This document shows, piece after piece, positions 21,745 to 21,778 of a stretch of DNA of 64,000 nt. Below the pieces are notes generated by a model. That model searched no databases. It saw only the letters and a list, made by a program, of their open reading frames with translations, and was not told the origin of the DNA. The first letter of the stretch is position 1. Each line of letters begins with the position of its first letter. The position numbers were made by a program, and so were the translations under genes. This stretch comes from Escherichia phage 121/2022-2B, in the sequence record OR958571.1. One strand, written 5' to 3'.

Positions 21745-21778
21745 AAAATGCTTTAAAAATTTCATGGTATAATGAATC
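21745..21778 (+). promoter_or_regulatory. Candidate plus-strand MotA-type middle promoter, antisense to modA
   Basis: aaTGCTTTAaa, 12 nt, TGGTATAAT on the plus strand. Confidence 0.35.

Follow-up and report, generated by a model that had tools for sequence, protein, structure and literature searches.

A conserved candidate MotA-dependent promoter directed antisense into the mod genes of T4-like phages

The middle promoters of bacteriophage T4 serve as the model of sigma appropriation, and the role known for them is to switch genes on. Promoters of this class, such as PuvsX, P56/69, and P45.2, combine a MotA box, a spacing of 12 ± 1 bp, a TAtaaT -10 element that is optionally preceded by TGn, and no -35 consensus, and the class consensus is given as (a/t)(a/t)(a/t)TGCTTtA, 12 ± 1 bp, TAtaaT (PMC2988021). 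The cessation of early transcription is not explained by the known factors, and unknown strategies must exist (2010 T4 review). Here, we describe a candidate middle promoter on the plus strand of Escherichia phage 121/2022-2B (OR958571.1), located at positions 21744–21773 of a stretch of 64,000 nucleotides that was analyzed as a whole (hereafter, the window) and directed antisense into the early genes modA and modB. Whereas the other good matches to the middle promoter consensus in the window run with the early and middle genes and precede open reading frames (ORFs), this site is oriented the opposite way and has no gene to express.

The plus strand at the site reads aaaaaTGCTTTAaaaatttcaTGGTATAATgaatctaag. 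It comprises a MotA box at 21744–21755 (aaaaaTGCTTTA, that is, aaaaa followed by the core TGCTTTA at 21749–21755; approximately -37 to -26 from the predicted start), a 12-nt spacer at 21756–21767, the last three bases of which, TGG (21765–21767), provide the TGn of an extended -10, and the sigma-70 -10 hexamer TATAAT at 21768–21773. Given the standard distance between the -10 element and the start (7–8 nt past the -10), transcription would begin at an A at position 21780 or 21781, 11 nt before the modA stop codon. All the elements that define the class, namely, the MotA box, the 12 ± 1 bp spacing, and the TAtaaT -10, are found at 21744–21773, along with the TGn that occurs in about half of the known middle promoters and is present here as TGG-TATAAT (21765–21773). 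The first-pass annotation had called a full MotA box at the canonical spacing from an extended -10, and the plus-strand sequence bears this out; the 12-nt spacing given there holds if the count runs from the last base of TGCTTTA up to TATAAT and takes in TGG. No sigma-70 -35 element accompanies the site: the hexamer 17 nt upstream is AAAATG, and a sigma-70 scan gave no plus-strand promoter ending at 21773. Both phage proteins on which a middle promoter relies are encoded inside the window. The activator that reads the MotA box is the product of motA (3603–4238, minus strand; 211 aa), which matches annotated MotA in a tblastn search, and the co-activator needed for sigma appropriation is assigned to a putative asiA (1511–1783, minus strand), a 90-aa ORF that contains peptides found in T4 AsiA. 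By every sequence criterion, membership of the site in the class of MotA-dependent middle promoters is strongly supported, and we consider it quite likely that the predicted promoter is functional.

The loose pattern TGCTTNA-N11-13-TANNNT occurs 16 times in the window against 4.35 occurrences expected, with 11 matches on the minus strand, the direction of the early and middle genes, and five on the plus strand, so that a loose plus-strand match by itself means little. The strict pattern TGCTTTA-N11-13-TATAAT has three matches in the window against 0.04 expected; apart from the antisense site, these lie 5' of gene 56 and just 3' of gene 46, the listed positions of P56/69 and P45.2. The remaining loose matches on the plus strand (12355–12378, 23849–23874, 39430–39454, and 44619–44642) carry weak -10 hexamers (TAAATT, TAGCCT, TATCTT, and TACCAT), and their number is near that expected by chance (about two per strand).

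The same antisense architecture is found in the mod-srd spacer of Mosigvirus (PhAPEC2, ESCO47), Gaprivervirus (VR25 and CJ20, with the box CGCTTTT), and Dhakavirus (JS10), and it recurs in Winklervirus (CBH8), Gelderlandvirus (Melville), a Jiaodavirus-like Klebsiella phage (Mexia), Tegunavirus (TG1), Marfavirus (MY02), and a Karamvirus-like Enterobacter phage (SonariX); the rest of the mod-srd spacer is unalignable between these genera. Aligning the sequences of ten lineages at the motif gave mean pairwise identities of 0.89 in the MotA box and 1.00 in the -10 hexamer, compared with 0.40 in the spacer between them, 0.37 in the 25 nt upstream, 0.56 in the first 12 nt after the -10, and 0.29 further downstream. 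This identity profile is the footprint of a predicted promoter, unlike that of a conserved sequence block. Within the genus, 17 Tequatrovirus sequences show the same pattern, with variation at none of the 13 positions of the box and -10 and at two of the 12 spacer positions, but at 26 of 74 positions in the flanking srd leader and early promoter. In JS10, a hand count gives about 2/6 matches to TTGACA at the -35 position, from which it follows that lineages without TGn would need MotA.

To survey this locus with less bias, IMG/VR was queried with the Srd alignment, yielding 80 loci, 44 of which have a Mod homolog upstream of srd (a query with ModA alone retrieved six close relatives only, and an alignment of mixed Mod proteins proved too divergent to search for the locus). 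Roughly 930 phage genomes that encode mod were found in all. The motif, defined as [TC]GCTT[TC]N-N11-13-TATAAT on the antisense strand no more than 220 nt from the mod end, is present in 41/44 mod-srd loci and beside srd in none of the 36 loci without mod. The 41 loci represent 24 sequence variants from about 14 lineages, all 24 of which have GCTT in the box, a spacing of 12 or 13 nt, and a G directly after TATAAT; TGn is present in ten. The three mod loci that lack the motif share 89–93% identity with the Krischvirus phage Makalu. Krischvirus is the genus of RB49, a phage for which neither a motA gene nor a middle promoter consensus could be identified (PMC1524935). A tblastn search of Makalu with the MotA and AsiA of the window gave no match in the 50 kb spanning t, gene 52, and rIIB, which is the asiA/motA region in T4. 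In Krischvirus, mod still adjoins srd, with an ordinary early promoter between them. With the motif in 41/41 of the mod loci outside Krischvirus and in 0/3 of those within it, the motif tracks mod and MotA together and is lost without MotA.

The neighborhood of the motif also separates mod from srd as its partner. In Marfavirus MY02, dmd is inserted between mod and srd, and the motif lies in the mod-dmd spacer, away from srd, whereas in Acinetobacter phage 133 and Morganella phage Rgz1, where srd has no mod neighbor, the motif is absent. As judged from these arrangements, the candidate promoter belongs to the 3' end of mod, not to srd. This link makes mod the favored target, and we lean, although by a modest degree only, to an off-switch, acting by antisense RNA or by interference, for mod and for read-through from it.

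The position of the early promoter relative to the motif is not fixed. In the window, the srd early promoter, the ortholog of T4 Pe11.5, occupies 21704–21732 on the minus strand (TTTACA at 21732–21727, 17 nt, and TG-n-TATAGT, with the hexamer at 21709–21704) and is marked as a predicted early promoter in the records of phages Lutter and fPS-90. Its -35 hexamer is separated from the MotA box by 16 bp, and this back-to-back layout places the MotA box at approximately -52 to -58 of the srd early promoter. The early promoter of modB-modA, the ortholog of T4 Pe12.8, lies at 23040–23068 on the minus strand (TTTACT, 17 nt, and TATGAT with TG); it is convergent with the antisense promoter at a distance of about 1.26 kb, and the Lutter record likewise marks a promoter at this position. 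The names of the two T4 early promoters follow PMC6024815. In the first-pass annotation, the antisense site was described as back to back with the srd early promoter, which is accurate for the window but does not carry over as a general rule. In Tequatro-, Mosig-, Gapriver-, and Dhakavirus, the early promoter separates the motif from srd and is arranged back to back with the antisense promoter, whereas in CBH8, Melville, and SonariX, it is located between the motif and mod, so that the two promoters are face to face with their -10 hexamers 13–14 bp apart (L023 1394–1462 in Winklervirus, L024 1393–1460 in Gelderlandvirus, and L032 1395–1462 in the Karamvirus-like phage). With the facing -10 hexamers this close, the predicted starts fall on the same or adjacent base pairs, and the arrangement would amount to an overlapping promoter pair that remodeling of the polymerase would flip. 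Because the early promoter moves around the motif, the antisense promoter appears to be selected for itself and not as a part of the early promoter.

The same geometry invites a different reading, namely, that the site serves the gene downstream of mod as a directional switch or insulator, where MotA-directed polymerase would compete with the early promoter, block read-through, and end the expression of srd or dmd, with the antisense RNA as a by-product. Such a role would suit the Winkler-, Gelderland-, and Karam-like phages, in which the coincident starts imply that binding must be mutually exclusive, as well as the window, in which the MotA box lies in the zone where UP elements act; in addition, Pdda.1, inside srd, independently supplies the genes further downstream. 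Yet, the motif remains beside mod even if another gene follows, as with dmd in MY02, and on hand inspection there was no clear sense promoter beside the motif in the Jiaoda-like phage, Tegunavirus, and Marfavirus. We regard a switch of this kind as unlikely, although it competes closely with the off-switch for mod; the two overlap, both rest on convergent transcription, and they are inseparable by sequence alone.

The genes around the site are all encoded on the minus strand, and the identities of dda, dda.1, srd, modA, and modB were confirmed by comparison with the T4 record. The ORFs together with that record place dda at 19293–20612 and dda.1 at 20609–20920. The sense-strand gene 3' of mod is srd (20922–21668), and read-through from mod into srd would meet the antisense promoter head-on. 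The first gene under the predicted antisense transcript is modA (21791–22393, with the stop codon at 21791–21793), which encodes the RNA polymerase alpha ADP-ribosyltransferase, a highly toxic protein. It is followed by modB (22390–23013), also encoding an ADP-ribosyltransferase, which would be covered only by a long antisense transcript. The candidate promoter itself falls in the 122 nt that separate the stop codon of modA from the start codon of srd, and because the site is intergenic, it can be destroyed without touching any protein. The window belongs to a Tequatrovirus closely related to T4. Over 1 kb surrounding the site (21300–22300), it has 98.8% identity with RB51 and RB68, and the 341-nt core (21560–21900) is identical (100%) to phage KIT03; that the top database match depends on the length of the stretch (KIT03 versus RB51 and RB68) reflects the usual mosaicism of Tequatroviruses.

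Downstream of the predicted start, the plus strand of the window holds a 35-aa ORF with a GTG start at 21828–21935, preceded by AAGAG, and a 59-aa ORF with a TTG start. Neither is conserved in other genera, which upholds the statement that no plus-strand ORF follows the promoter. These two ORFs are what could be adduced for a promoter that serves an unannotated small plus-strand gene antisense within modA. Such a hidden gene was rejected because 3/11 lineages have no antisense ORF of at least 25 aa starting within 200 nt, and in the others, the ORFs are inconsistent, with differing position, start codon, and length, so that this explanation is very improbable. A structured small RNA was likewise rejected, given that folding z-scores, computed for the first 80 and the first 150 nt, do not agree from one lineage to another and only Tequatrovirus has a hairpin (21817–21853, plus strand; z = -2.4). 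A sense-strand RNA element was also discarded, RNAalifold on the ten lineages having predicted no pairs, and no Rfam family matched in 21300–23300 at E ≤ 1. On the plus strand, no convincing intrinsic terminator was detected, only weak hairpins with poor T tails at 22175–22211 and 22898–22917.

Within the last 60 nt of modA, the segment 21817–21853 is an imperfect inverted repeat, GAGTATAGA...TTTTATACTC, that other genera do not share; read on the sense strand, UUGAUUUUG comes after it, giving a terminator-like shape before the modA stop codon. Further to the right, just 3' of soc (25214–25450, minus strand), a perfect GC-rich hairpin of nine pairs, AAGGACTCC-TTCG-GGAGTCCTT, is accompanied by a T run (25186–25207); being palindromic, it could also stop plus-strand transcripts. 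A 14-pair hairpin at 23011–23045 on the minus strand covers the ribosome-binding site and start codon of modB directly after the early promoter and may limit modB translation.

An antisense RNA that modulates modA and modB, as had been proposed from the sequence of the window, agrees with the geometry and with the link to mod. As in cis-encoded antisense systems, an opposite-strand promoter stands beside the target and is directed into it, and this placement behind mod is the same in all the lineages. The evidence accommodates RNA pairing, transcriptional interference, and promoter competition alike. We infer firing, MotA dependence, and all three of these downstream consequences from the anatomy of the site, and the course of events might be envisaged as follows. 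Early in infection, unmodified sigma-70 polymerase would use the -35-dependent promoters Pe12.8 (modB-modA) and Pe11.5 (srd). At about 2–4 min, AsiA-remodeled sigma region 4 together with MotA would recruit the polymerase to the box at 21749–21755, and transcription starting at about 21780 on the plus strand would produce a non-coding transcript antisense to modA and, if long enough, to modB. Head-on collisions would abort polymerases arriving from Pe12.8 and further upstream, leaving less full-length mod mRNA, and would also cut read-through into srd (or dmd in Marfavirus). The RNA would be complementary to the 3' part of the mod mRNA, and the resulting duplex could be degraded. Promoter occupancy would overlap the UP-element zone of the adjacent early promoter or, in the face-to-face lineages, the early promoter itself. 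The net effect would be a timed, local shut-off of toxic early enzymes.

A bolder version of this scheme, which we put forward tentatively and with more doubt than the off-switch itself, holds that the 3' end of mod carries a conserved direction-flipping module of about 60 bp, in which the switch from -35 to MotA-box recognition turns transcription from sense (read-through from mod and early expression of srd) to antisense (against mod) and caps the dose of the toxic ADP-ribosyltransferases. If true, sigma appropriation would here serve, for the first time, for silencing instead of activation and would give a gene-specific answer to the shut-off of T4 early genes. Control of ModA and ModB dosage matters in view of the current interest in both proteins, which concerns RNA polymerase modification and RNAylation.

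T4 itself has the site, with one change in the spacer (box at 11866–11872 and TATAAT at 11885–11890, plus strand; expected start at 11897/11898). It is unannotated in the T4 record and in other phage records, which mark the early promoter only. The hidden Markov model (HMM) scan of RB69 lists the orthologous site, without comment, as Pm:12081 (plus strand, 12081–12122, with a 1-bp insertion; PMC1524935 additional file 4). A T4 differential RNA-seq study reports 150 phage transcription starts, 22 of which are antisense (bioRxiv 10.1101/2024.04.04.588121). A full-text literature search combining MotA-dependent and antisense returned nothing relevant, and the T4 omics papers that are accessible do not mention antisense transcripts at mod. 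So far as the accessible literature shows, the conservation of the site and its coupling to mod are undescribed, and the promoter is not in the list mapped in 2010.

Several points weigh against the interpretation of the site as an active antisense promoter that controls mod. The T4 site is absent from the approximately 58 experimentally identified middle promoters (PMC2988021 Table 1), although the T4 genome had been searched with the consensus, and the nearest entry in the middle promoter table is Pdda.1, at 11138 (PMC2988021). The HMM score of the RB69 site is low, at 7.9 (PMC1524935 additional file 4). The MotA-less control consists of one genus, Krischvirus, and the metagenomic loci, at 3.7 kb, are too short to show whether the phage has MotA. 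A discrete antisense transcript with a defined 3' end, a hallmark of cis-encoded antisense RNA regulators, is not apparent at this locus, and Rho may cut short an untranslated antisense RNA that lacks a terminator. Moderate conservation extends over the first 12 nt or so past the -10, as G(A/G)NTC(T/A)AG, which makes a second function possible. Finally, Stoskiene and colleagues reportedly observed in 2007 that some good consensus matches yield no transcript in vivo or in vitro.

With respect to the conserved bases after the -10, these may belong to the promoter itself, given that TATAAT-(g/t)AATCT is common to the antisense promoter and two sense middle promoters of the window, and the shared bases may represent a preferred discriminator or start region of strong T4 middle promoters. 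The two sense middle-type promoters lie on the minus strand at 52898–52923 and 26185–26208, and they read TATAATgaatct and TATAATtaatct.

Absence from the experimental list, together with the silence that is said to characterize some T4 consensus matches, would be expected if the site were an inactive look-alike, kept by descent or by a use on the minus strand, be it as an upstream element of the early promoter, as the 3' end of mod, or as srd leader RNA; in the lineages with short spacers, the motif indeed lies inside the srd leader. Conservation, however, tracks the promoter elements and their spacing instead of sequence blocks, the early promoter changes sides relative to the motif, the sense strand has no predicted consensus RNA pairs, and the motif is lost exactly in the MotA-less genus, where mod and srd are still adjacent. 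The chance that the site is such a look-alike appears slim.

Another use of a promoter with no gene to express would be priming of replication. An origin-type primer promoter resembling oriF (uvsY) or oriG (34) would make a MotA-dependent non-coding transcript that forms an R-loop in A+T-rich DNA and primes rightward leading-strand synthesis. The oriF and oriG origins pair a middle-mode promoter with an A+T-rich unwinding element, and their RNAs do not have to be coding; oriA is mapped only roughly, 'near soc' (PMC3016281), and soc is 3.4 kb to the right of the site. The origins named in the same review are oriA, C, E, F, and G, and it cites an unnamed MotA-dependent promoter 'nearby' oriA (PMC3016281). 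No report places an origin at 11.9 kb of T4. The first 50–100 nt downstream of the site are 72–73% A+T, compared with a mean of 66% for the window, but this excess is modest, at the 75th–95th percentile of 50-nt windows (the 95th percentile being 76%). The promoter associated with oriA is presumably P56/69, which is 4.4 kb away and on the other strand, and this speaks against an origin at the antisense site. Strict coupling to the 3' end of mod is not predicted for an origin either, and we consider an origin role improbable, although not to the same extent as a hidden gene.

Some further observations concern the srd leader and the interior of srd. The sequence TCTTACGGACG (21681–21691, in the minus-strand srd leader) adjoins the srd ribosome-binding site and recurs in Tequatro-, Mosig-, Gapriver-, and Dhakavirus; in the Klebsiella phage Mexia (L025, ~1441–1453), TCTTACGGACG forms the spacer between the antisense MotA box and the -10. 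A small hairpin of the leader is one possibility for it (CGUC-CGUAA-GACG in Mexia), and some Tequatroviruses have a 7-nt deletion that removes the bases just 5' of ACGGAC in the srd leader. Inside srd, the known T4 middle promoter Pdda.1 (L001, 1640–1680) has the deviant box TGCAATA, 12 nt, and TAAAAT, and at the Pdda.1 position Mosig- and Gaprivervirus have CGCTTTT-12-TAAA(A/G)T (L018–L021, ~990, minus strand; L028, 2123, plus strand). Because the Mosig-/Gaprivervirus Pdda.1 site has CGCTTTT, as does the antisense promoter of Gaprivervirus, boxes of this form occur at a conserved promoter position.

Among the described systems, the T4 origins ori(34)/oriG and ori(uvsY)/oriF have MotA-dependent promoters whose transcript functions as RNA instead of being translated. 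The P34i promoter is embedded in a late gene and oriented opposite to it, and ori(34) provides a precedent for a non-coding MotA promoter. The mod site differs from these origins in having no mapped origin, modest A+T richness, and tight linkage to mod. That T4 makes RNA antisense to its own genes has a precedent at a different locus, in the antisense transcription of gene 32 (Belin et al. 1987, as cited in PMC2988021).

Outside the T4-like phages, the promoters paQ and pRE of lambda, which respond to CII, and the antisense RNAs OOP of lambda and sar of P22 illustrate the general principle of an early phage activator directing polymerase to an antisense promoter that has no protein product and fires into a gene whose expression must be curtailed. 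In its mode of action, the mod site would most resemble paQ and pRE or pairs of convergent, interfering promoters. In lambda, CII acts at the -35, as opposed to sigma appropriation here, and the RNA ends and effects are demonstrated, whereas the mod site is known from sequence. A perfect consensus, kept wherever mod and MotA coexist and with nothing to express, points to use of the MotA machinery for turning genes off. The facing promoters pR and pL of coliphage 186 and pIN and pOUT of IS10, where firing of one lowers the other, offer a parallel for the face-to-face lineages, which resemble overlapping pairs; in the window, by comparison, the convergent partner, Pe12.8, is about 1.26 kb off, and the early promoter closest to the site stands back to back with it. 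A switch at mod would also differ from those of 186 and IS10 in that it would follow the specificity of the polymerase over time, not the relative strength of the promoters.

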